Shown: in pieces, positions 10,879 to 20,351 of the stretch
Numbering within the stretch: position 1 is the stretch's first letter
Layout: each line of letters begins with the position of its first letter
Source: an uncultured Ignavibacteria bacterium
Lineage (GTDB): Bacteria > Bacteroidota > Ignavibacteria > Tepidaquicellales > OLB5
DNA length: 64,000 nt
Assembly (NCBI GenBank): GCA_947084945.1
Contig: CAMTUP010000015.1
Location: forward strand, 24,576-88,575
Direction: 5' to 3'
Program-made: the position numbers and the translations under genes
The notes under the pieces: generated by a model
What the model saw: only the letters and a program-made list of their open reading frames with translations
Databases searched by the model: none
Told to the model about the DNA's origin: nothing

Positions 10879-11044
10879 ATAATCTTTTCTGCTATCGCAT
10901 TCCCTACGAATTAGTATGTTACAAATATAGCCTCTTGTCCACTCCTAAAACAATCGTAAACTTAAGTAAATCTGTAATTACACTCTAAACCTAATTAATC
11001 ATACTTTCACTGTATAACGAAAAAACCTATATTATCTAACGTAT
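10879..11044 (-). repeat. Copy 1 of a ~165-bp promoter/leader repeat (partner at 20188-20351)
   Basis: Aligns by eye in direct orientation with 20188-20351. A ~75-nt core is almost identical (cgttatacagtgaaagtatgaWtaattaggtttagagtgtaattacaKatttacttaagtttacgattgttttagg on the minus strand). It lies immediately upstream of the ATG at 10835. Confidence 0.85.
10923..10930 (-). promoter_or_regulatory. Candidate Bacteroidetes-type -7 box (TAnnTTTG)
   Basis: Minus strand reads TATATTTG, with a TTG about 21 nt upstream (gaTTGttttagg). It is conserved in both repeat copies and lies about 85 nt upstream of the ATG. Confidence 0.4.
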
Positions 11045-11184
11045 GAGGGTGAGGATTGAGATGAAGGAGTCTTTTGGGAAGTTAAAAGTGGCGATATTAG
11101 CGTTTTTTTGAGTATGCGGGAAAAGTACTAAAAACAGTCAACTTTTAAGCCTGCTAGAGTAGAAAAGCGACCATGTCTAAGACA

Positions 11185-11219
11185 GGTGAAGACTGCATAA
11201 AGCGCAGAAAGCCTTCACC
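11185..11219. other. Nested stem-loop in a noncoding junction
   Basis: ggtgaag-a-ctgc-ataaagc-gcag-aaagc-cttcacc: outer 7-bp and inner 4-bp complementary arms. Confidence 0.45.
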
Positions 11220-11232
11220 ACTGAGGTTCACG

Positions 11233-11254
11233 GAGGACACAGAGGACACAGAGG
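11233..11254. repeat. Short tandem repeat, 9-nt unit gaggacaca, about 2.4 copies
   Basis: Read directly: gaggacaca gaggacaca gagg. Confidence 0.7.
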
Positions 11255-11266
11255 TATGCAATATTT

Positions 11267-11292
11267 CTTTGTTGGTGACAACACCAACAAAG
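11267..11292. other. Perfect 11-bp hairpin just upstream of the first rhs fragment
   Basis: ctttgttggtg-acaa-caccaacaaag. No flanking T run on either strand, so it is not a classical terminator. Confidence 0.7.
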
Positions 11293-11329
11293 GGCTAAAA
11301 TTTTCTATATTTATGATAACTCAAACAGA

Positions 11330-12835
11330 TTGTTAAAAACACAAAATGATGATGGAAATAATACATCAACATTTAACATTATCAACGGCTATGATAAAGA
11401 CGGCAATTTTGTAGGCATGAAGCGTTATGGCTCGTCTAATAATCTTGCAGATAATTTTACTTATACATATTTTAGCGGTACTAATAAACTGCAAAAGGTA
11501 ACAGGACAGATGAACGATGATTACAGCTATGATGCAAATGGCAATGTTACATATGATAATGTTAATAAAAATACCGAAATTAAATATGATCACCGCAATT
11601 TGATGATAGAAAACAAAAATATTTCATCACTTAATACATACCGGACATTATACCGATACGATGAAGCAGGTAACAGGATAAGTAAAAAGCAATATCTCTA
11701 TATAAACTCTCCCCCGCCCGGAGGTATTGTCCGAAGGACTCCTCTCGGAGAAGGAATTGAAAGCGGTACTGGATATGGTGACAGCATTATAGTAGATGTA
11801 GGCGACGGAAGCGGTTACTGGTCTTTGGTTGGCAATACGTATTATGTCCGCGATGTTTCAGGTAAAGAAATTGCAATATATTCAGGAAGTTCTTTAACTC
11901 AATGGAATATTTGGGGACTTGATAACGTGGGTAAGATTAATTCAGATACTACTCGCAATTATTACCTGAAAGACCATTTGGGAAGCGTAAGAGTAGTTTT
12001 GAACAGTACTAATACAGTAATCTCTGCTCAAGACTATGATTGTTGGGGCTATTTACTTGAAGGGCGAACTTATGAATCCGTGTCATCAGTTAATCAGCGA
12101 TACAAATTTACCGGTAAAGAAAGAGATAGAGATTTAGAAAGTAATTATGATTATTTTGGTGCGAGGTATTATGATAGCAGGATAGGAAGGTGGGGCGGAG
12201 TTGAGCCAAAATATGATAAGTATGTAGGAGTAACACCATATAATTATTCCTTAAACAATCCTATAATAATGATTGATCCAAACGGTAAAGATCCATATAG
12301 GAAGTATCTTGTATCCTTGCAAACAATCTCAAATAATATCAGTTCATTTGGTGATGCAAAATCTAATTCATTGGGTGCTGTACAATCTTTTTATGATATA
12401 GCATCATTTTATAATGATACTAAATATCGTTATACTTTTACTGAAAAATCAGGATTTATTGATTTGAAGCATTTCTTTGCTTCTGCTGGTTTAGTTGCTT
12501 TAAGTCTAGCAAAAAATAAAGCTGAAAATTATGGATTTTTATATGAAGTATTACAAGACTTAGGAATTGCTGATGAAAATTCGGCATACGATCCGGAAGA
12601 TTTGCCTTCAAATAAATTAGGTGCTGAATTTGGTGAGTATTTTGCAAATAGTGAATTAACTTTAGAAGAAGCGTTTGTGGAATTTATGAAAGAGCAAGGT
12701 TCTAAAGATTTGGATGAATCATATTTCAGCATTTGGTATATACCATATGACGAAAATAGCAGACCTTTAGAAAGAAGCAGGTCAAATAGCCCATTTTACG
12801 GTGAAAGAGTCCGAAAAAATTATCTTGAAAATTAA
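11330..12835 (+). CDS. 5'-truncated RHS/YD-repeat protein: about 320 aa of repeat/core plus a 181-aa C-terminal toxin-like domain (CT1, unknown family)
   Basis: YD repeats (YSYDANGNVTYD, YRYDEAGNRISK) are followed by RHS-core-end motifs YYLKDHLGSVRVV, YDCWGY, YKFTGKERD, NYDYFGARYYDSRIGRW and PYNYSLNNPIIMIDPNGK (DPNG at 12275-12286). The frame opens only at 11321, and the track start is a TTG. A full Rhs shell would need well over 1000 additional N-terminal residues. Confidence 0.85.
   Translation: MLKTQNDDGNNTSTFNIINGYDKDGNFVGMKRYGSSNNLADNFTYTYFSGTNKLQKVTGQMNDDYSYDANGNVTYDNVNKNTEIKYDHRNLMIENKNISSLNTYRTLYRYDEAGNRISKKQYLYINSPPPGGIVRRTPLGEGIESGTGYGDSIIVDVGDGSGYWSLVGNTYYVRDVSGKEIAIYSGSSLTQWNIWGLDNVGKINSDTTRNYYLKDHLGSVRVVLNSTNTVISAQDYDCWGYLLEGRTYESVSSVNQRYKFTGKERDRDLESNYDYFGARYYDSRIGRWGGVEPKYDKYVGVTPYNYSLNNPIIMIDPNGKDPYRKYLVSLQTISNNISSFGDAKSNSLGAVQSFYDIASFYNDTKYRYTFTEKSGFIDLKHFFASAGLVALSLAKNKAENYGFLYEVLQDLGIADENSAYDPEDLPSNKLGAEFGEYFANSELTLEEAFVEFMKEQGSKDLDESYFSIWYIPYDENSRPLERSRSNSPFYGERVRKNYLEN
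11729..11749. repeat. Palindromic element gtccgaaggactcctctcgga, in frame (encodes VRRTPLG)
   Basis: Arms tccgaagga / tcctctcgga are complementary apart from a 1-nt bulge. The same element occurs at 15253-15272 and 19493-19512. Confidence 0.7.
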
Positions 12836-12837
12836 AA

Positions 12838-13404
12838 ATGATGATAAAAAAAATTATTATCATAGTACTCTTTTTTGGGGTGGTATATCTATTAAGAATA
12901 TTTCTACTAAATATTCCATTTATTGGGTGGGCTTACGAAGCCTTTGAAATTAAGATTTCCGTTTTCCTATATAATTTTGTTACGAATCCGATTTTAGTAT
13001 CCACATCAGTAATTATTATTATATTAACAAACGTAATTTTATTTAAGAAAAATATTGGTTGGAAATATATTTACATTCAATTTATTCTTTATGTAATTTT
13101 GTTGTTTTGGATTTATGAAGGTTTTAGAATTGAAAATTTAATTTCTTTAGGAAAGAAAATCACTATAGAAGTTGAAAAAGTATTTGCCACTGATAATAAA
13201 TTGCCTCAAAATCTTGACGATATTACCAAGTATAATTTTGATCAAAATGAAGCATCGCAAATAAAAGAAAATTTCAAATATGAACTGGATTTTGCTCAGC
13301 CTATTCCTAAGTATGGATATAAATTGGATTTAGAACCTACTTTTCTAAAATACCATAGGTTTGTATGTAAGCCTTGGACGAAAAAGTTTATAATGTTTGA
13401 TTAA
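12838..13404 (+). CDS. Putative immunity protein 1 (polytopic membrane N-half, soluble C-half)
   Basis: ATG lies 2 nt after the CT1 stop; 188 aa. Hydrophobic segments are IIIIVLFFGVVYLL, ILVSTSVIIIILTNVILF and YIYIQFILYVILLFWIY. The immunity call rests on position only. Confidence 0.55.
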   Translation: MMIKKIIIIVLFFGVVYLLRIFLLNIPFIGWAYEAFEIKISVFLYNFVTNPILVSTSVIIIILTNVILFKKNIGWKYIYIQFILYVILLFWIYEGFRIENLISLGKKITIEVEKVFATDNKLPQNLDDITKYNFDQNEASQIKENFKYELDFAQPIPKYGYKLDLEPTFLKYHRFVCKPWTKKFIMFD

Positions 13405-14470
13405 TAATTTTGTCTGTATACAAATTGATGTAGGCGACGGAAGCGGTTACTGGTCTTTGGTTAGCAATACGTATTATGTCCGTGATATTTCAGGTAAAGA
13501 AATTGCAATATATTCAGGAAGTTCTTTAACTCAATGGAATATTTGGGGACTTGATAACGTGGGTAAGATTAATTCAGATACTACTCGCAATTATTACCTA
13601 AAAGACCATTTGGGAAGTATAAGAGTAGTTTTGAACAGTACTAATACGGTTATCAGTGCCAATGATTATGATTGCTGGGGTTATCCACTGGAAAACCGTA
13701 CTTACCAGCCTGAGAACAGTAAATATAAGTTTACCGGTAAGGAAAGAGATAAAGATTTGGAGAATAATTACGATTACTTCGGGGTGAGATATTATGACAG
13801 CAGGATTGGTAGATGGGGAGGTGTTGAGCCGTTGTTGGATAATAATATTAGTTTTACCCCATATAATTACTGTAAAAATAATCCTGTAATATTTATTGAT
13901 CCAAATGGCGCATGGGATGAATATGTAAATGAAGCGGGCAAGTATCTTGGCTCAGATAATGATCCGAATTCAAATGAAGTGAGAGTTACGAGTGACGAAG
14001 AGTGGAATCAAACAAATTCAAAACAATCATCAAGTGAAGAAAAGAGAAATGAACTTCAGTCTAGAAGCACCCTTTTGAATGAGTACAAGTTTGGAATATC
14101 AATTTCTGAGCAAACTTGGAATGTCTTGGAATCACAAAATGTTGAACGGTTAGATCCCTATGTTATAAACCAAAGTGATTATACTATTTATTATAAGCCC
14201 GAAGAAGGTGACTTACCATGGCCAATTGCTCCACATACCGATTTGTATACAAGGGTAGATGGTTTAAATACCCCATGGATATCTGACGGAAATGTTTACA
14301 AAGTTCCAGATTATTATAGGACTGTAGTTAACTCAAAAGGTGTACCAGATATAAGAGGCATTCCATTAGAAATAATAGGTGAAGTTGTTTCAAAAATAAG
14401 ACCACTGCTTGGCGAAATTAAATCACCTGGTTCTGATTGGAACAACCTAAGGGATGTATACAAAAAATGA
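13397..14470 (+). CDS. Orphan RHS core-end fragment fused to C-terminal toxin-like domain CT2 (186 aa, unknown family)
   Basis: Nucleotide homology to the first fragment starts at about 13427 (DVGDGSGYWSLV...). The stretches 11856-11967 and 13488-13599 are identical over 112 nt. The DPNG boundary is at 13898-13909, then unrelated sequence. The track start is a TTG inside the preceding gene, probably not a real start. Confidence 0.8.
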   Translation: MINNFVCIQIDVGDGSGYWSLVSNTYYVRDISGKEIAIYSGSSLTQWNIWGLDNVGKINSDTTRNYYLKDHLGSIRVVLNSTNTVISANDYDCWGYPLENRTYQPENSKYKFTGKERDKDLENNYDYFGVRYYDSRIGRWGGVEPLLDNNISFTPYNYCKNNPVIFIDPNGAWDEYVNEAGKYLGSDNDPNSNEVRVTSDEEWNQTNSKQSSSEEKRNELQSRSTLLNEYKFGISISEQTWNVLESQNVERLDPYVINQSDYTIYYKPEEGDLPWPIAPHTDLYTRVDGLNTPWISDGNVYKVPDYYRTVVNSKGVPDIRGIPLEIIGEVVSKIRPLLGEIKSPGSDWNNLRDVYKK

Positions 14471-14820
14471 AAAAACTAAAAAATATCTTAGGTTTTAGTG
14501 TTTATATACCATTAATATTTCCAATTGCTTTATATTCTTATTATTTAAGAATTTATATCATATTAGGTCATATTCCTGAAATTAAGAATAAAGATGAGTT
14601 TAATATTACCATGAACTTGCATAGTTTATTAGTATTCAATTCATTTACATTTACTTTTTTAATAGTTTTTATTAATATTTTGTTGATAATTATATGTATC
14701 ATAAAATTAAAGAATAGACCCGATAATTCAATATTAATAGGCTTTACAATTAGTACATTAATTTGGGCTATAGTAGTAATATTTGATCCATTTGGCATTT
14801 TTAGTTGGATTGTAGGTTAA
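14467..14820 (+). CDS. Putative immunity protein 2 (small polytopic membrane protein)
   Basis: ATGA start/stop overlap with CT2. MKKLKNILGFSVYIPLIFPIALYSYYL..., with three strongly hydrophobic segments; 117 aa. Confidence 0.55.
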   Translation: MKKLKNILGFSVYIPLIFPIALYSYYLRIYIILGHIPEIKNKDEFNITMNLHSLLVFNSFTFTFLIVFINILLIIICIIKLKNRPDNSILIGFTISTLIWAIVVIFDPFGIFSWIVG

Positions 14821-14862
14821 TTTTTCCCCTGTTCCTACCAACAACGGCGTAAGACCCGCTGG

Positions 14863-15983
14863 AAATACACAGGTGGTTCCCCTAACCCGGTGTATGATGA
14901 GGATAGCCCAAGTTGGATTTTGCAGAGCGATGAATTTTATGTAAGAGATATTTCAGGTAAAGAAATTGCAATATATAACGGTTCAAGCTTAACACAATGG
15001 AATATTTGGGGACTTGATAATATAGGAAAAATAAACGCTGATACTACACGAAATTATTATTTGAAAGATCATTTGGGAAGCGTAAGAGTAGTTTTGAACA
15101 GTACTAATACAGTAATCTCTGCTCAAGACTATGATTGTTGGGGCTATATACTTGAAGGGCGAACTTATGAATCTGTGTCATCAGTTAATCAGCGATACAA
15201 GTTTACGGGCAAAGAAAGAGATAAAGATTTAGAAAGTAATTATGATTATTTTGTCCGAAGGACTCCTTTGGAGGCGCAAGGTATTATGATAGCAGGATAG
15301 CCAATTGGACAAGCACTGACCCGCTCTTTGAAAAGCATTTTGATTATTCACCGTATAATTATGTACTCAGGTGTCCTACTGTTTTACTGGATCCTGATGG
15401 AAAACAAATTAGATTTTCAAATGATGCATCACTCAGAAATAATGAGTTGCAATCATTAAAAAATACGTTACCTGGAAAATATTCCGAAAATGTTAATTAC
15501 ATTCAAGATGAAAAAGGAAATTACATCTTAGATGCTGTACTTCTAGAAAAGGCATCAACTGACTCGAATCCTGAAGAGTACAATCGATTAATGGACATTG
15601 CAAAGTTTAATGAAATTACTGACATAAAGGCATGGAATAATGAACCAATATCATACGATAAAGGTACATTTACTCTCGGTACATTTAAAGATGAAAACGG
15701 AAGTAAGAAATTAAGAGCTGGTTATACCTTAGTCTCAGGTAAAGTAGACAATCCAAGTGAAAATAAAGATTTATCTACAAGCGGTAATAACGAAGTGTAT
15801 TACTTATGGCTTATGAACGAAACTTCAGTTGCTAGCACATTAGCCCATGAATTGTATGTTCATGTTTGGAATTATATTAAAGGAACAGGGTATACACATC
15901 AAGATGAAAATATAAATAATCAGTCAGAATATTTTGAAAGTAAAGCTAAACAAAACTATGAAGAACGTAAAAATGAAAAATAA
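14863..15983 (+). pseudogene. Orphan RHS core-end + CT3 toxin-like domain, frameshifted by a 20-nt insertion
   Basis: Track ORFs 14890-15300 and 15447-15983 are two halves of one module. Reading ...NYDYF, then the insertion at 15253-15272, the text resumes in the other frame as GARYYDSRIANWTSTDPLFEKHFDYSPYNYVLRCPTVLLDPDGKQ (DPDG at 15390-15401). Deleting the 20 nt restores a single 357-codon frame from 14890. Confidence 0.8.
15253..15272. repeat. 20-nt palindromic insertion gtccgaaggactcctttgga disrupting cassette 3
   Basis: Cassette 4 reads gattattttggcgcaag at the same site, whereas cassette 3 reads gattatttt[gtccgaaggactcctttgga]ggcgcaag. The arms tccgaagga / tcctttgga pair with one G-T. 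Confidence 0.75.
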
Positions 15984-16620
15984 GACAATTTTCGTAAGTT
16001 TCTTTTTTATTTTACTTTCATCACATACTATAATGATTATAAGTGATGACTTGGTTGAACTAAAGGTACTGCCAAATAGAATAAGCAATAACTTAGTTTG
16101 TGAATCCATAATGTATTCAATTACAAATAATTATTCGGATACAATAGTTACTTTTAGTGATGTATTTATAGAGGGCTTGACTGATACTATATCTATATTC
16201 CCAATGTCAAGTATGTTTGCACCAAACCTCGCAATATTAAAGTCACCTAATAACTCACGTTTATTTGTTGATGGTTATTTTGAAATACTTTTTTATCAAT
16301 TTCCGAATTTGTTGGTCATTCCACCAGGTGCAACAAAAGTAATTAATCTGAATATTGCCAATTACAAAACAATTTTAAGTCAAGACATATGGAATATAAC
16401 TGGTATAATTTCGGTTGCACATAAATATGATATTGACACTATTGTCTCAATTAATTATCCCAAAAGATATAGTGAATATGTTAGAGCATTAGATTATCAA
16501 GATACAGTTTATATTTATTCAAAAACTACAGGTTCTATTAATTCAATATATAAAAACGAAAGTTTAGAGCAAATTAATTTAATAAAAGAGGCATTTAAGT
16601 TTAGGTATTATTCAAAGTAA
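15973..16620 (+). CDS. Putative immunity protein 3 (signal peptide or N-terminal anchor plus soluble domain)
   Basis: The ATG at 15973 overlaps the CT3 stop region (aaaATGaaaaaTAA). MKNKTIFVSFFFILLSSHTIMII..., 215 aa. The track ORF starts earlier, at 15934. Confidence 0.5.
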   Translation: MKNKTIFVSFFFILLSSHTIMIISDDLVELKVLPNRISNNLVCESIMYSITNNYSDTIVTFSDVFIEGLTDTISIFPMSSMFAPNLAILKSPNNSRLFVDGYFEILFYQFPNLLVIPPGATKVINLNIANYKTILSQDIWNITGIISVAHKYDIDTIVSINYPKRYSEYVRALDYQDTVYIYSKTTGSINSIYKNESLEQINLIKEAFKFRYYSK

Positions 16621-16705
16621 TCCAAATACACAGAAAGCACACCTGACCGGTGTTTGATGTTTCGGGTGATTCACCGCCATGGACACTGCAGAGTGATGAG
16701 TATTA

Positions 16706-16735
16706 ACTGTCTTCGCCACGGCTCAACCAGTCAAG
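16706..16735. other. 30-nt insertion creating an in-frame TAA in the core-homology part of cassette 4
   Basis: Cassette 3 reads cagagcgatgaattttatgtaagagat. Cassette 4 reads cagagtgatgagtatta[actgtcttcgccacggctcaaccagtcaag]tgttagagat. The stop codon is at 16704-16706. Confidence 0.6.
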
Positions 16736-16802
16736 TGTTAGAGATGTTAGCGGTAAGGAAATAGCGATATACTCAGGAAGCTCATTAACGCAATGGAATA
16801 TC

Positions 16803-17633
16803 TTGGGCTTGGATAATGTTGGCAAGATTAATGCCGATACCACAAGAAATTATTATTTAAAAGATCATTTGGGAAGCGTAAGAGTAGTTTTGAACAGTAC
16901 TAATACGGTTATTAGTGCCAATGATTACGACTGTTGGGGTTATTTACTTGAAGGGCGAACTTATGAATCTGTGTCATCAGTTAATCAGCGATACAAGTTT
17001 ACGGGCAAAGAACGGGATAGAGATTTAGAAAGTAATTATGATTATTTTGGCGCAAGATATTATGATTCACGTATAGCCAACTGGACAAGCATTGACCCGC
17101 TCTTTGAAAAGCATTTTGATTACTCGCCGTATAATTATGTGTTGAGAAACCCGTTAGTGTTGATTGACCCGGATGGGAAGCAAGTAGATATAAAAGAACT
17201 ATCAGACCCTATATATCATATTAACAAAGAAGTGGGATTTATTTATGATTATGCAATCTCTGTGAATAATAAATTAGCAGAGCAAAGCAAAAAATTAAAT
17301 AATACTGCAAAAGAATGGATTCCTAAGTTTGCTTTTAGAAAAGGAGTTGAAATTGCCATGGAATTTGTTGCTTTAAAACTTCAAATGGAAGCAAAATTTA
17401 TGATTAAAATAACTGGTGTTGTGTTACAGCTAGCATTAGATACTAGAGAACTGGGTCCAAAATCGGAACAAGATAAAATGGATGAAATAAATGAAGAGGT
17501 ATATGGTAAAAAGAAGAGAATTGACGAAAATAATGACAAAAAAGAAGAAAAGAAGGAAGAAAAAAAACAAGAAAGCAAAAACACTGAATATAATAAAATT
17601 AAGTTAATACCATTTAAAATTTTTGGGTTTTAA
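16803..17633 (+). CDS. Orphan RHS core-end fragment fused to CT4 (151 aa, hydrophobic helix plus K/E-rich tail)
   Basis: Core homology actually begins at 16624, 4 nt after the preceding stop, but is interrupted by the 16706-16735 insertion. The frame is open from 16707. The core end is ...NYDYFGARYYDSRIANWTSIDPLFEKHFDYSPYNYVLRNPLVLIDPDGKQ (DPDG at 17166-17177). Confidence 0.75.
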   Translation: MGLDNVGKINADTTRNYYLKDHLGSVRVVLNSTNTVISANDYDCWGYLLEGRTYESVSSVNQRYKFTGKERDRDLESNYDYFGARYYDSRIANWTSIDPLFEKHFDYSPYNYVLRNPLVLIDPDGKQVDIKELSDPIYHINKEVGFIYDYAISVNNKLAEQSKKLNNTAKEWIPKFAFRKGVEIAMEFVALKLQMEAKFMIKITGVVLQLALDTRELGPKSEQDKMDEINEEVYGKKKRIDENNDKKEEKKEEKKQESKNTEYNKIKLIPFKIFGF

Positions 17634-17637
17634 ATCT

Positions 17638-17871
17638 ATGGAATTCATTATATTTATTTTACTGTTTATATTATTTGAACTACTTGGCAAAAAGAGTAAG
17701 AATATTACGCTTTGTATCGGAGGTAATATTTTAAAAATTGTAAAAGGAAAAATATTTAATAAAGAATATTTAATTAATCATAAAAAAATAGCACAAACAA
17801 TTGGATATGCAGTTTTAATTTCTTTCCTTTTTAGCATATCGTTTTTTTTAAGTATTATTTTTGGTAATTAG
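17638..17871 (+). CDS. Putative immunity protein 4 (two-TM mini-protein)
   Basis: ATG lies 5 nt after the CT4 stop. MEFIIFILLFILFELLG ... IGYAVLISFLFSISFFLSIIFG; 77 aa. Confidence 0.5.
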   Translation: MEFIIFILLFILFELLGKKSKNITLCIGGNILKIVKGKIFNKEYLINHKKIAQTIGYAVLISFLFSISFFLSIIFGN

Positions 17872-17916
17872 TAACGCAATGCTGACACTACTCGCAATTA
17901 TTACCTAAAAGACCAT

Positions 17917-18810
17917 TTGGGAAGTATAAGAGTAGTTTTGAACAGTACTAATACGGTAATATCTGCTCAAGACTATGATTGTTGGGGTTATTTACTTGAA
18001 GGGCGAACTTATGAATCTGTGTCATCAGTTAATCAGCGATACAAATTTACCGGTAAGGAAAGAGATAAAGATTTGGAGAATAATTACGATTACTTCGGGG
18101 TGAGATATTATGACAGCAGGATTGGTAGATGGGGAGGTGTTGAGCCGTTGTTGGATAAGTATGTAAGTTGGAGCCCTTATAATTATGGTTTATGTAATCC
18201 AATAATTTTAAAAGATGTGAATGGATTAGATGTATTTGTTGCATTTTCAGGTTGGGGTATGCATAAATCAGGAGAAATTATTGACCCTTCAGAATATTCG
18301 CCAACTTCTGAAACTGGAACCAACGTTTTATTATATGATTTACAGAAAACTATTAATGATAACAACATTAATGATTTTGATATTCGAGGATATTATGCAA
18401 GTTCGAGTGGTAGTGAAATTGAAGAGGCATTTAATTTTATTAAACAAAATTTAGAAAATTCAGATGAAAAAGTATATCTGTATGGTTACAGCATGGGTGG
18501 AATAAATATTGTAGAGCTTGCAGATATGTTAGGTGAAGCAGGTATAAGCGTTGAGTTATTATTTACGATTGATGCAGATAAACCATTTACTGGTAGTGAG
18601 CAAAATATACCTAGTAATGTAATTGAAAATTGGAATTTTTATCAAACTAATAAAGAATTACCATTCTTTTCAAGTGGTAGTGTGAATAAAGCATTTGATT
18701 TGAAAAAAACTACAATATTAAATATTAAAAAATCTGATCCTCATATGCAGATGGATGAAGAAACGGGTTCAGCTGTTCTTAGAAAAATTTACGGTTCAAT
18801 TATAAAGTAA
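17917..18810 (+). CDS. Orphan RHS core-end fragment fused to CT5, an alpha/beta-hydrolase lipase/esterase-like toxin domain
   Basis: Homology starts at about 17878 (NADTTRNYYLKDHLGSIRVV) and the frame is open from 17875. The core ends at ...PYNYGLCNPIILKDVNGL (18214-18225). The CT has a GxSxG nucleophile elbow, YLYGYSMGG (Ser codon 18490-18492). Confidence 0.8.
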   Translation: MGSIRVVLNSTNTVISAQDYDCWGYLLEGRTYESVSSVNQRYKFTGKERDKDLENNYDYFGVRYYDSRIGRWGGVEPLLDKYVSWSPYNYGLCNPIILKDVNGLDVFVAFSGWGMHKSGEIIDPSEYSPTSETGTNVLLYDLQKTINDNNINDFDIRGYYASSSGSEIEEAFNFIKQNLENSDEKVYLYGYSMGGINIVELADMLGEAGISVELLFTIDADKPFTGSEQNIPSNVIENWNFYQTNKELPFFSSGSVNKAFDLKKTTILNIKKSDPHMQMDEETGSAVLRKIYGSIIK

Positions 18811-18817
18811 TTATAAA

Positions 18818-19108
18818 ATGAAAATTATAAAATTTATTTCTGCTATCGCAATTTTGTTTTCTATATTCATGTTTTCTTCCATGTATTTTAATTTATATCC
18901 CCCTCTTATTTTTAAAGCATTTTCAAATTATTTTTTTCAATTTTGGATTGTAATTGTTCTGGTCGCATTTAGTTTATCAATATTTTCAATATTTAAGATT
19001 AAATTAAAGAATAATAAAAAACATTATAATTTATTATTTATTAACACTGCTCTACTTGGGTTAGTAATAGTATATTTTGTCTTTGTTTTTTTTGTTCATA
19101 AGCCTTAA
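18818..19108 (+). CDS. Putative immunity protein 5 (three-TM membrane protein)
   Basis: 96 aa, starting 8 nt after the CT5 stop. Hydrophobic segments are IIKFISAIAILFSIFMFSSMYF, FWIVIVLVAFSLSIFSIF and LLFINTALLGLVIVYFVFVFFV. Confidence 0.55.
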   Translation: MKIIKFISAIAILFSIFMFSSMYFNLYPPLIFKAFSNYFFQFWIVIVLVAFSLSIFSIFKIKLKNNKKHYNLLFINTALLGLVIVYFVFVFFVHKP

Positions 19109-19204
19109 ACATTTGTTTGTGAGAATATGTAATTTTGAAGACTTTAATATAGTTATGTAAGAGACACTTGACGCAAATATGAAAATATCTTAACACTCCA
19201 GTGA

Positions 19205-19627
19205 ACAAGAATTATTCAGGATGATTTTCTTTACAAATATGTGAGCGGCACAAACAGGCTAAGAAATATTGGACATGGACAAAATTATACCTATGACCCC
19301 AACGGCAATGTAACTTTAGATGATTTGAATAAAAACACCGAAATAAAATATGACCACCGCAATTTGATGATTGAAAACAAAAATGTTCTTTCTCTTAGTA
19401 CATACATGACAAGATACCGCTATGACGAAGCCGGAAATAGGATAAGTAAAAAGCAATATCTCTATATAAACTCTCCCCCGCCCGGTGGAATTGTCCGAAG
19501 GACTCCTCTCGGTGAAGGCGGTAATGGATACGGAGATAGTATTATTGTGGATGTAGGCGATGGATCAGGCTACTGGACTTTGGTTGGCAATATGTATTAT
19601 GACAAGGATTTTAGTTGTAAGGAATAA
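19205..19627 (+). pseudogene. Terminal RHS repeat fragment duplicating the 5' part of the 11330-12835 gene
   Basis: DDFLYKYVSGTNRLRN...NKNTEIKYDHRNLMIENKN...YRYDEAGNRISKKQYLYINSPPPGGIVRRTPLGEG..GYGDSIIVDVGDGSGYWTLVGNMYY is colinear with residues ~41-172 of the first fragment. It then decays (DKDFSCKE, stop), with no core end or toxin. Confidence 0.75.
19493..19512. repeat. Third copy of the palindromic element (gtccgaaggactcctctcgg), in frame
   Basis: Read directly; same context as 11729-11749 (PPPGGIVRRTPLGEG). Confidence 0.7.
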
Positions 19628-19640
19628 ATATACTTCATAA

Positions 19641-19672
19641 CAAAAAACCCCTGCTCTAATGTAGAACAGAGG
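19641..19672 (-). terminator. Rho-independent terminator of the 19702-20151 gene
   Basis: Minus strand reads cctctgttcta-cat-tagagcagggg (11-bp stem including two G-U pairs), followed by ttttttg. Confidence 0.75.
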
Positions 19673-19701
19673 TTTAAAATTTTCAATATATAAAAATTAG
19701 C

Positions 19702-20151
19702 TTACTTTATGATATTCAATTTTCTTACTTCTTTGTACTTTCCAACAACTAAGCGGTAATAATAAGTGTCCTTGGTCAAATTAGCCTGCTTAAGCTCTGC
19801 CGAAAATTCACCCTTTGGTTTATTATCATCAATTAACACTTTTAACTCTCTGCCCTTTGTATCAAAGATAGAAAACCTAACATACTCACCCTGCGGAATA
19901 GAAAAACTGAATAATGTATTATTTTCAACTAAAAGCATATCGCTCTGCTCAAGCTCGCTGGTACTTAGTGAGTTAGCTTCTGTTGATGTTAAATTATCGG
20001 GGTTAACTGAGCAACCAGTCAAGTTAGTATTACCTGCAAATGCAGTATTGCCAGCTATGCATAAAAAAAGAAGCATTGATAACATTGCTGTCAATTGCTT
20101 CGTTGATAAAAAACTTTGGGTTTTACGGTTTTGGGTCTGATTAGCTTTCAT
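19702..20151 (-). CDS. Minimal T9SS cargo: signal peptide, short Ser/Thr/Asn-rich linker and a T9SS C-terminal sorting domain
   Basis: 149 aa. Hydrophobic h-region LTAMLSMLLFLCIAGNTAFA. The C-terminus FSIPQGEYVRFSIFDTKGRELKVLIDD...DTYYYRLVVGKYKEVRKLNIIK resembles the other CTDs in the window. Confidence 0.7.
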   Translation of the reverse strand: MKANQTQNRKTQSFLSTKQLTAMLSMLLFLCIAGNTAFAGNTNLTGCSVNPDNLTSTEANSLSTSELEQSDMLLVENNTLFSFSIPQGEYVRFSIFDTKGRELKVLIDDNKPKGEFSAELKQANLTKDTYYYRLVVGKYKEVRKLNIIK

Positions 20152-20187
20152 TTTAAAATTACCTTTTAAGAAGTAGATTTATTATTT

Positions 20188-20351
20188 AATAATCTCTTCT
20201 GCTATGGTCTTTCCCTACCGATTAGTGATACAAATATAGCCTGCTGCCCGACCCTAAAACAATCGTAAACTTAAGTAAATATGTAATTACACTCTAAACC
20301 TAATTATTCATACTTTCACTGTATAACGTTAGCCCGATATTCTCTAACGTA
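20188..20351 (-). repeat. Copy 2 of the ~165-bp promoter/leader repeat (partner at 10879-11044)
   Basis: Direct-orientation alignment with copy 1. It lies immediately upstream of the ATG at 20151. Confidence 0.85.
20231..20238 (-). promoter_or_regulatory. Candidate -7 box TATATTTG (copy 2)
   Basis: Same position within the repeat as 10923-10930. Confidence 0.4.

Follow-up and report, generated by a model that had tools for sequence, protein, structure and literature searches.

A REP-like double-hairpin repeat as the probable source of short palindromic inserts in an orphan rhs cassette array of an Ignavibacteria bacterium

What has broken one toxin cassette of an rhs array by exactly 20 nucleotides, and why do related palindromes stand in frame elsewhere in the same array? 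The question is raised by a stretch of 64,000 nucleotides (the window, by which we mean the whole stretch of DNA analyzed) from contig CAMTUP010000015.1 of an uncultured Ignavibacteria bacterium (assembly GCA_947084945.1), which holds five rhs cassettes, c1 to c5, and a shorter rhs fragment 6 (Table 1). Cassette c3 is interrupted by a short palindromic insert, and c1 and fragment 6 carry related copies that are read through. The insert is very likely a copy of a dispersed, insertable repeat. The best overall explanation, which we regard as probable, is that this repeat is a miniature mobile hairpin resembling repetitive extragenic palindromic (REP) sequences, copies of which have landed in the rhs cassettes.

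The insert is sharply delimited. An alignment of the five cassettes leaves a clean gap of 20 columns in c1, c2, c4 and c5, between ...GATTATTTT and GGNGC..., and in the alignment of the conserved block the c3 insertion is flanked by ...AATTATGATTATTTT on the left and GGCGCAAGG... on the right. The inserted bases, GTCCGAAGGACTCCTTTGGA, occupy 15253-15272; because a G follows the insert, its boundary is ambiguous by one G, and 15254-15273 would be equally valid. This five-way alignment bears out the first-pass annotation, which had described a 20-nt insertion at the NYDYF/GARYYD codon junction of c3 relative to c4, with reverse-complementary arms, a frame shift that splits the cassette in two and a 357-codon frame restored by removing the insert. 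The arms pair with a single G-T pair, and the minimum free energy (MFE) fold is an 8-bp hairpin of -9.6 (RNA parameters) or -4.4 kcal/mol (DNA parameters). The insert shifts the frame by +2, a stop is reached at 15298-15300, and the cassette is called as two open reading frames (ORFs), 14890-15300 and 15447-15983; without the 20 nt, it is a single open frame of 357 aa plus stop. As read from its sequence, the canonical 20-nt unit contains no stop codon in any of the six frames. The 19-mer pattern behind the insert has three matches in the window and none in any of 100 dinucleotide shuffles, and TCCGAAGGA by itself likewise has three window matches against a mean of 0.13. An identical insert is present in an independent short-read contig (L001; Logan ERR4904396, two samples), and is therefore not an artefact of one assembly.

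The repeat extends well beyond the window. The pattern TCCGAAGGASTCCN{0,1}TTTGG, run over 185,579 species-representative genomes, found at least 119 loci, spread over more than 100 genomes besides this one, where chance would be expected, by our own estimate, to yield about 70 matches over all phyla in the whole genome collection; these loci were examined as 8-kb stretches. The possibility, left open in the first-pass annotation, that the palindrome is unique to its three places in the window does not hold, and the proposal made there of a miniature hairpin or REP-like element able to enter coding DNA gains support from these loci and from the empty sites described below. The insert of c3 is identical to the central-C, canonical-flank units of other genomes. 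The listed loci belong nearly all to Bacteroidota, Ignavibacteriota or Calditrichota; among them, the Bacteroidota include Chitinophagaceae, Sphingobacteriales (with two cultured Pedobacter), Saprospiraceae, Cyclobacteriaceae, Lentimicrobiaceae and Bacteroidales, and there are about 28 Ignavibacteriota, two Calditrichota and one Balneola. Several genomes have more than one of the listed matches: a Lentimicrobiaceae metagenome-assembled genome (MAG) has five, a Pedobacter three and a Cyclobacteriaceae MAG three. The surrounding contexts are unrelated, and the loci have only the unit in common. The few other taxon labels belong to non-canonical chance variants or to probably mis-binned contigs.

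Canonical copies also occur on contigs labelled Chloroflexota, Burkholderiales and Acinetobacter pittii (L058, L101 and L118). L058 is near-identical around the element to a Chitinophagales contig (L062), and all three are probably mis-binned contigs in public MAGs. Viral contigs yielded no match to the element, and searches of Rfam found nothing at the motif at either gathering or permissive thresholds. String and keyword searches of the literature did not find the sequence or the repeat, and the REP table of Quentin 2018, including Bacteroidetes subclass 2.6, holds no such motif. A 21-base double-hairpin repeat of this kind is, apparently, undescribed.

Comparison of filled and empty sites indicates that the unit behaves as a discrete insertion, and the number of such empty sites is small. 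These are c3 against c1, c2, c4 and c5; a metagenome contig, L005, against L127; and c1 against L125. The left junction reads TTG/TCC in c3/c4, L005/L127 and c1/L125, and apart from the ambiguous G nothing of the target is duplicated. L005 and L127 (about 79% identity) differ by a clean 20-nt indel at YDYF/G, as in c3. Homologous called proteins ending in YDYF-VRRTP(L/A)E led to three further filled rhs cassettes, on L005, L128 and L129, and the inserts of all four cassettes lie at the same YDYF/G nucleotide; a query with the short frameshift peptide itself yielded nothing. The four represent three lineages, which share only about 65% identity in the 210 nt to the left of the insert; for each lineage, there is a closer relative in which the site is empty (c3-c1, 95%; L005-L127, 79%), a pattern kept in the nearest 60 nt, and the codon directly 3' of the insert is a different one in each cassette (GGC, GGG, GGT, GGA). 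Near the insertion point, the four filled cassettes show no common haplotype; given the closer empty relatives and the different next codons, no shared conversion tract is visible. At least three independent insertions at a YDYF/G hot spot would be the simpler reading of these alignments, while very short conversion patches may also account for them. A search of Joint Genome Institute (JGI) metagenome contigs for DYF codons followed by the element found no further case, apart from one chance match in high-GC DNA; the filled YDYF/G allele is therefore rare.

The putative hot spot lies in a 40-nt rhs block, TTATGATTATTTTGGNGCRAGGTATTATGAT. The nucleotide concerned is situated between two TTATGAT 7-mers (the N-Y-D and Y-Y-D codons) about 27 nt apart, as at 12131-12190 in c1 and in every cassette; more speculatively, a slipped structure could expose a single-stranded TTTTGG there. 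On L005, an opposite-orientation variant of the repeat, CTCCGAAGGAGTCCCTTTGGGAC, stands at 1166-1189, 640 nt upstream of the filled YDYF/G site.

It is exactly at that variant that the homology of an orphan rhs fragment starts, as would be expected if the palindrome marked a recombination junction between rhs segments, the other possibility raised in the first-pass annotation. Such a role is, however, extremely unlikely. Homology is unbroken on both sides of the insert in c3, L005, L128 and L129, so that the element sits inside otherwise collinear sequence with no breakpoint, and the motif is found mainly outside rhs genes.

The copies in c1 and fragment 6 differ from the insert in c3, and both contain the related sequence GTCCGAAGGACTCCTCTCGG(A/T)G. 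The c1 copy is situated in an RHS-shell loop of highly variable length. That the palindrome is read in frame in these two fragments, as VRRTPLG, agrees with what was first described; the two are not separate cases, since the regions of c1 and fragment 6 are paralogous duplicates (family D3, 85% identity) and the copies at 11729 and 19493 therefore represent one event. Nor do homologous genes share the segment at the same codons: among 120 homologues of c1 there is no in-frame VRRTPLG, and both positions in the window have empty sites as counterparts. The DNA of the nearest c1 homologue, L125, lacks 24 nt, the gap beginning exactly after ATTG. The copy in c1 and fragment 6 is older than that in c3.

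The insert of c3 might be supposed to be a patch taken, by local gene conversion or other templating, from the c1 or fragment 6 copy, the fallback offered by the first-pass annotation. The two sequences have their first 15 nt and a final GGAG in common, and the reading phase is alike (VRRTPL). Yet c3 has the canonical TTT loop and a length of 20, as do dozens of other genomes, whereas the loop in the supposed donors is TCTC, and c3 was therefore not copied from them; three further metagenome contigs also have this insert at this very site. We accordingly consider a local patch very improbable.

Most copies avoid genes. Of the copies at the listed loci, only 21% lie within an open frame that extends over 150 codons or more; for random positions in the same loci, the figure is 79%. 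No clear preference emerges for tandem, convergent or divergent spacers or for the 3' ends of genes, and there is no bias of strand relative to transcription (21 vs 17). Inverted repeats of 6 bp or more adjoin 13% of copies (0.8% of controls), and direct repeats of 6 nt or more adjoin 6% (0.7% of controls); a subset of copies thus forms, given the flanking inverted repeats, the tip of a larger hairpin, an arrangement reported for some REPs (Di Nocera 2013; PMC3733652). Tandem and composite arrays are also found (L032, L064, L023).

Copies within genes follow a length rule. With canonical flanks, one-base-longer units, which add 21 nt, lie in mid-ORF in five of seven cases, and units of other lengths in 5 of 93 (Fisher p = 6e-5); the unfiltered units give 7/12 and 6/110, respectively. 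Only +1 variants, or composites whose length is a multiple of three, survive in genes. The host genes are real, and encode a SAM-dependent methyltransferase, a BD-FAE esterase, an imidazolonepropionase, a beta-lactamase-family protein and an NmrA-like protein. Compared with solved structures, the imidazolonepropionase (L077) has an insertion of 17 residues, which the element marks; in the esterase of L039, the motif brings no length difference from solved homologues, and this copy may be old or coincidental. The window obeys the same rule: its canonical copy frameshifts c3, and its translated copy has a loop one base longer.

These observations also bear on whether the filled cassettes might still make their toxins through programmed recoding, either by a ribosomal hop from TTT to TTT or by a -1 frameshift. 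The inserts share one codon junction in four cassettes, with downstream frames intact over all that the contigs cover; the insert folds into a hairpin; and c3, L005 and L129 have a TTT take-off codon and a second TTT 14 nt on, such that a hop would give F-GGARYYD. However, the loop in L128 is TGC, which leaves no TTT landing codon, no stop follows the take-off codon (the next codon is GTC), and there is no slippery heptamer. The unit is, moreover, mostly intergenic, no further metagenome case was found at YDYF/G, and copies in real genes have gained one nucleotide, which implies that the 20-nt form is not read through. Recoding is, on this evidence, highly unlikely.

The family consensus can be written (T)G-TCC-RAA-GGA-C-TCC-TTY-GGA-G(A). 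Conservation at the flanks (T-G/TCC...GGA/G-A) goes no further out, and a T stands at -2 in 58-70% of copies. The flanking and central bases are G..C..G or C..G..C in 100 of the 116 units listed, where random flanks would give about 1/16. What look like two types are a single consensus, symmetric on the double strand, in its two orientations, and all four R/Y combinations are present among unbiased extra copies. For the unit, two folds are possible: a pair of neighboring 4-bp mini-hairpins whose loops are RAA and TTY, or one hairpin of 8-9 bp. Because the stems are kept while the loops vary (TTT, TTC, TGC, TCTC), the pattern favors two mini-hairpins of 4-5 bp over the single long hairpin of the computed MFE fold. 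In the variant TCCC-TTT-GGGA, 13 of the 16 copies having the extra C also have the compensating G, and GCCC-TTT-GGGC and TCCC-GAA-GGGA were seen as well.

Several loci carry the repeat within larger structures. A 170-nt repeat in L023 (3780-4100) contains a perfect-palindrome variant, GTCCGAAGGACTCCTTCGGAG, beside a small hairpin, CCCCC-TTTGAA-GGGGG, and many copies elsewhere adjoin mini-hairpins of the CCCC...GGGG type; there may be a wider class of such small hairpin units. In L064 (1600-1950), three tandem units of about 110 nt lie directly downstream of four tRNA genes, and each consists of the variant TCCC-RAA-GGGA-C-TCC-TTY-GGAG, a stretch resembling a tRNA 3' end and a terminator-like hairpin.

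A motif so uniform could instead be a conserved functional site, whether a protein operator or a structured RNA or DNA signal, with the rhs copies accidental or selected. It is conserved across phyla at the level of sequence, with no alternative stems, and inspection of the consensus shows two TCC-N3-GGA half-sites one helical turn apart. We nonetheless regard this explanation as improbable: it sits poorly with clean 20-nt indels between otherwise collinear homologues, with copies inside coding regions and tandem arrays, with unrelated neighbor genes that form no recurrent regulon, and with the lack of promoter-side or strand bias and of any Rfam match.

The unit acts as discrete insertable DNA that adds 20 nt directly 3' of (T)TG in either orientation. 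If the repeat is, as we consider probable, a mobile hairpin, a canonical copy landed in the most conserved block of c3, between the NYDYF and GARYYD codons, and caused the frameshift, which would be tolerated because the orphan cassettes are silent spares. The older, one-base-longer copy in the RHS-shell loop of c1 and fragment 6 stays in frame and is translated as VRRTPLG. It is possible, though we suggest it tentatively, that the repeat is mobilized in trans through its single-stranded hairpin by an HUH/IS200-like or similar enzyme that reads both the target G and the element. The target G could pair with the central C of the element. Its C-GAA-G loop also stands at the core of d(GCGAAGC), a DNA mini-hairpin of great stability. 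A still bolder and more doubtful proposal would make this the smallest site-selective mobile DNA unit in bacteria, moved in trans across the superphylum by a single-strand DNA enzyme or by templated insertion, with the target G pairing the central C and the YDYF/GARYY block serving as a natural hot spot in rhs genes.

The main mechanistic rival requires no enzyme. Replication stalled at hairpin-prone DNA might lead the nascent strand to switch to another copy by way of microhomology of 1-3 nt (a TTG to the left and a G to the right), copy the unit and return. The junctions do show only TTG and G microhomology, without target duplication; many copies are preceded by T-G and followed by G-A, and so would provide a source of the microhomology; and no partner gene has been found. 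Template switching would leave unexplained, however, the occurrence of the same 19-mer across phyla, as exact single units each time, and at least three insertions at the same nucleotide in cassettes that are only 65% identical. It is, in our assessment, unlikely.

Several results weigh against the mobile-hairpin explanation. A regular expression for the Y1/HUH signature found none in the window and one among the 119 listed 8-kb loci, and the link to a REP-associated tyrosine transposase (RAYT) or IS200-type enzyme that had been suggested for this locus was thus looked for in both and not found beside the copies. At the listed loci, no gene family recurs beside the copies except generic ones, and the 64-kb window holds no intergenic copy of the element. 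The repeat lacks the GT[AG]G or CGTC foot tag of REPs. A 19-mer common to several phyla is unusual for REPs and could point to a conserved binding site or a templated origin, and twin hairpins with other stem sequences are not above chance, from which it follows that conservation is at the level of sequence. Covariation between flanks and center was considered as proof of two hairpins and rejected, as G..C..G and C..G..C are orientations and loop positions 5 and 17 vary R/Y. Finally, the empty and filled sites compared are those of paralogues and diverged homologues.

The single signature-bearing ORF among the 119 listed loci lies on an Ignavibacteriae contig (L096, 156-830). It encodes 225 aa with NHVH and YIVDNP motifs, as in a RAYT-like Y1 HUH protein, and two copies of the element lie 4-5 kb away. 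An apparent UvrA-like cluster among the neighbor genes proved to represent nothing narrower than the ABC-ATPase superfamily; the other neighbor clusters are short-chain dehydrogenases (SDRs), histidine kinases and large secreted proteins.

Set against known systems, the repeat behaves as a REP-like element. REPs measure 20-40 nt, are mobilized by RAYT Y1-HUH transposases and flank a RAYT gene in what is termed a REPtron. The present repeat is, as are REPs and REPINs, a short imperfect palindrome, dispersed and, at the listed loci, mostly extragenic, found in both orientations, single or arrayed, and sometimes nested in larger palindromes; REPs, too, sometimes lie inside genes and are translated (PMC3733652, PMC6006769). 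Beyond the missing foot tag and the lack of a RAYT gene beside the copies in the window and the listed loci, it differs in that its unit consists of two mini-hairpins sharing a central base, and in that REPs are usually specific to a species or genus. The Rickettsia palindromic elements (RPEs) insert in protein-coding genes and persist if the frame is kept (cited in PMC3733652), and copies of the present repeat are likewise translated inside genes; RPEs are, however, 100-150 bp long and confined to Rickettsia, whereas this unit is 20 nt long and breaks the frame. Insertion 3' of TTG without target duplication and hairpin-defined ends recall IS200/IS605 elements and the miniature palindrome-associated transposable elements (PATEs), and the C-GAA-G loop would suit a single-strand DNA intermediate, but the repeat is far shorter and no TnpA was found. 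Miniature transposable elements with inverted repeats (MITEs), by contrast, measure 70-300 bp, with terminal inverted repeats (TIRs) of 15-30 bp and a target duplication; the insert has 20 nt, 9-nt arms and no duplication. Small G+C-rich hairpin units within A+T-rich DNA, coding sequence included, are also represented by the double-hairpin elements of Allomyces mitochondria and by the GC clusters and byp elements of yeast mitochondria. These are organellar, eukaryotic and unrelated in sequence, and translational bypass, as in T4 gene 60 or mitochondrial byp, is unsupported for this repeat: matching take-off and landing codons are not present in all carriers (L128), and no stop follows the take-off codon.

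If the family is confirmed, it would represent a superphylum-wide, sequence-invariant mini-repeat with properties between those of REPs and of IS200-type hairpin elements, and would help in tracing the enzyme by which it is moved. Among its cultured hosts are Pedobacter puniceum HX-22-1 and Pedobacter sp. ISL-64. The additional base in gene-borne copies would form a readable record of selection, and a 20-nt frameshift in a reporter would offer a simple reversion assay. A stop-free unit of 20 nt that silently splits genes is also a source of annotation errors: c3 is called as two ORFs, and four rhs cassettes in public data end in VRRTP(L/A)E. For rhs biology alone the consequence is minor, as one orphan cassette is disabled by a guest element.

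The host locus resembles other orphan rhs/YD toxin-immunity arrays in its string of 5'-truncated core ends, divergent C-terminal toxins and small downstream ORFs. It differs from them in the lack of a full-length rhs gene in the window and in the palindrome, which is a guest and no part of rhs biology. Each member ends in a conserved core block, followed by its own C-terminal domain and a small downstream ORF. The core block (300 nt, five copies) constitutes repeat family D1; its matches to RHS_repeat are weak, and its homologues carry PF25023. The cassette C-termini are mutually divergent. Cassette c1 lacks its N-terminal part, starting abruptly at about 11330 after some 300 nt of non-coding DNA (11030-11330), and no full-length rhs gene lies upstream of the cassettes within the 64-kb window; all five are therefore orphans.

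Table 1. Coordinates of the rhs array, its cassettes, the copies of the repeat and the filled sites on other contigs. Positions refer to the window unless a contig is named.
Feature	Position	Strand	Remarks
rhs/YD array	11030-20180		5'-truncated fragments: cassettes c1-c5 and short fragment 6
Cassette 1 (c1)	11330-12835	+	5'-truncated rhs fragment, 501 aa; has in-frame copy; NYDYF/G site 12157/12158 empty
Copy in c1, GTCCGAAGGACTCCTCTCGGAG	11729-11750	+	Longer by one base, with TCTC and not TTY as second loop; read VRRTPLG
Cassette 2 (c2)	13397-14470	+	Junction empty, TACTTC/GGGG; TTTTG absent
Cassette 3 (c3)	14890-15983	+	rhs core end and C-terminal toxin; split by insert, otherwise intact
Canonical 21-nt unit in c3, G-TCC-GAA-GGA-C-TCC-TTT-GGA-G	15253-15273	+	20 bases inserted; one flanking G is target
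Putative immunity gene of c3	16033-16620	+	195 aa, intact; role inferred from position
Cassette 4 (c4)	16621-17633	+	Empty site TTTTG/GCGCAAGA at 17048/17049; comparison cassette of the first-pass annotation
Cassette 5 (c5)	17872-18810	+	Empty site; toxin weakly lipase/thioesterase-like
rhs fragment 6	19241-19627	+	Duplicates part of c1
Copy in fragment 6 (...CGGTG)	19493-19514	+	Read VRRTPLG; last stem degraded, GGT instead of GGA
Filled rhs site	L005 1809-1828		20 nt identical to c3 insert
Filled rhs site	L129 1891-1910		20 nt identical to c3 insert
Filled rhs site	L128 1247-1266		Second loop TGC

The C-terminal domain of c5 (17917-18810) has weak matches to Thioesterase and to a Tle1-like phospholipase of the type VI secretion system (T6SS), and that of c1 (within 11330-12835) a weak match to DUF4056; the toxins of c2, c3 and c4 matched no Pfam family. 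The upstream part of c4 (16621-16802) contains stop codons and an extra segment of about 30 nt relative to the other cassettes, and the 5' end of this cassette is therefore degraded too.

The whole array is flanked by a 103-nt direct repeat (10917-11019 and 20226-20328; 91% identity), and short-read contigs from two samples (L002, L003, L004) end exactly at it. The array could be an island between the repeats, or the repeat could be a mere assembly breakpoint. Genes for Por_Secre_tail proteins and PorZ lie near the array; the two copies of the 103-nt repeat contain a TAnnTTTG-like promoter box, and each is situated upstream of minus-strand coding sequence for a Por_Secre_tail domain.

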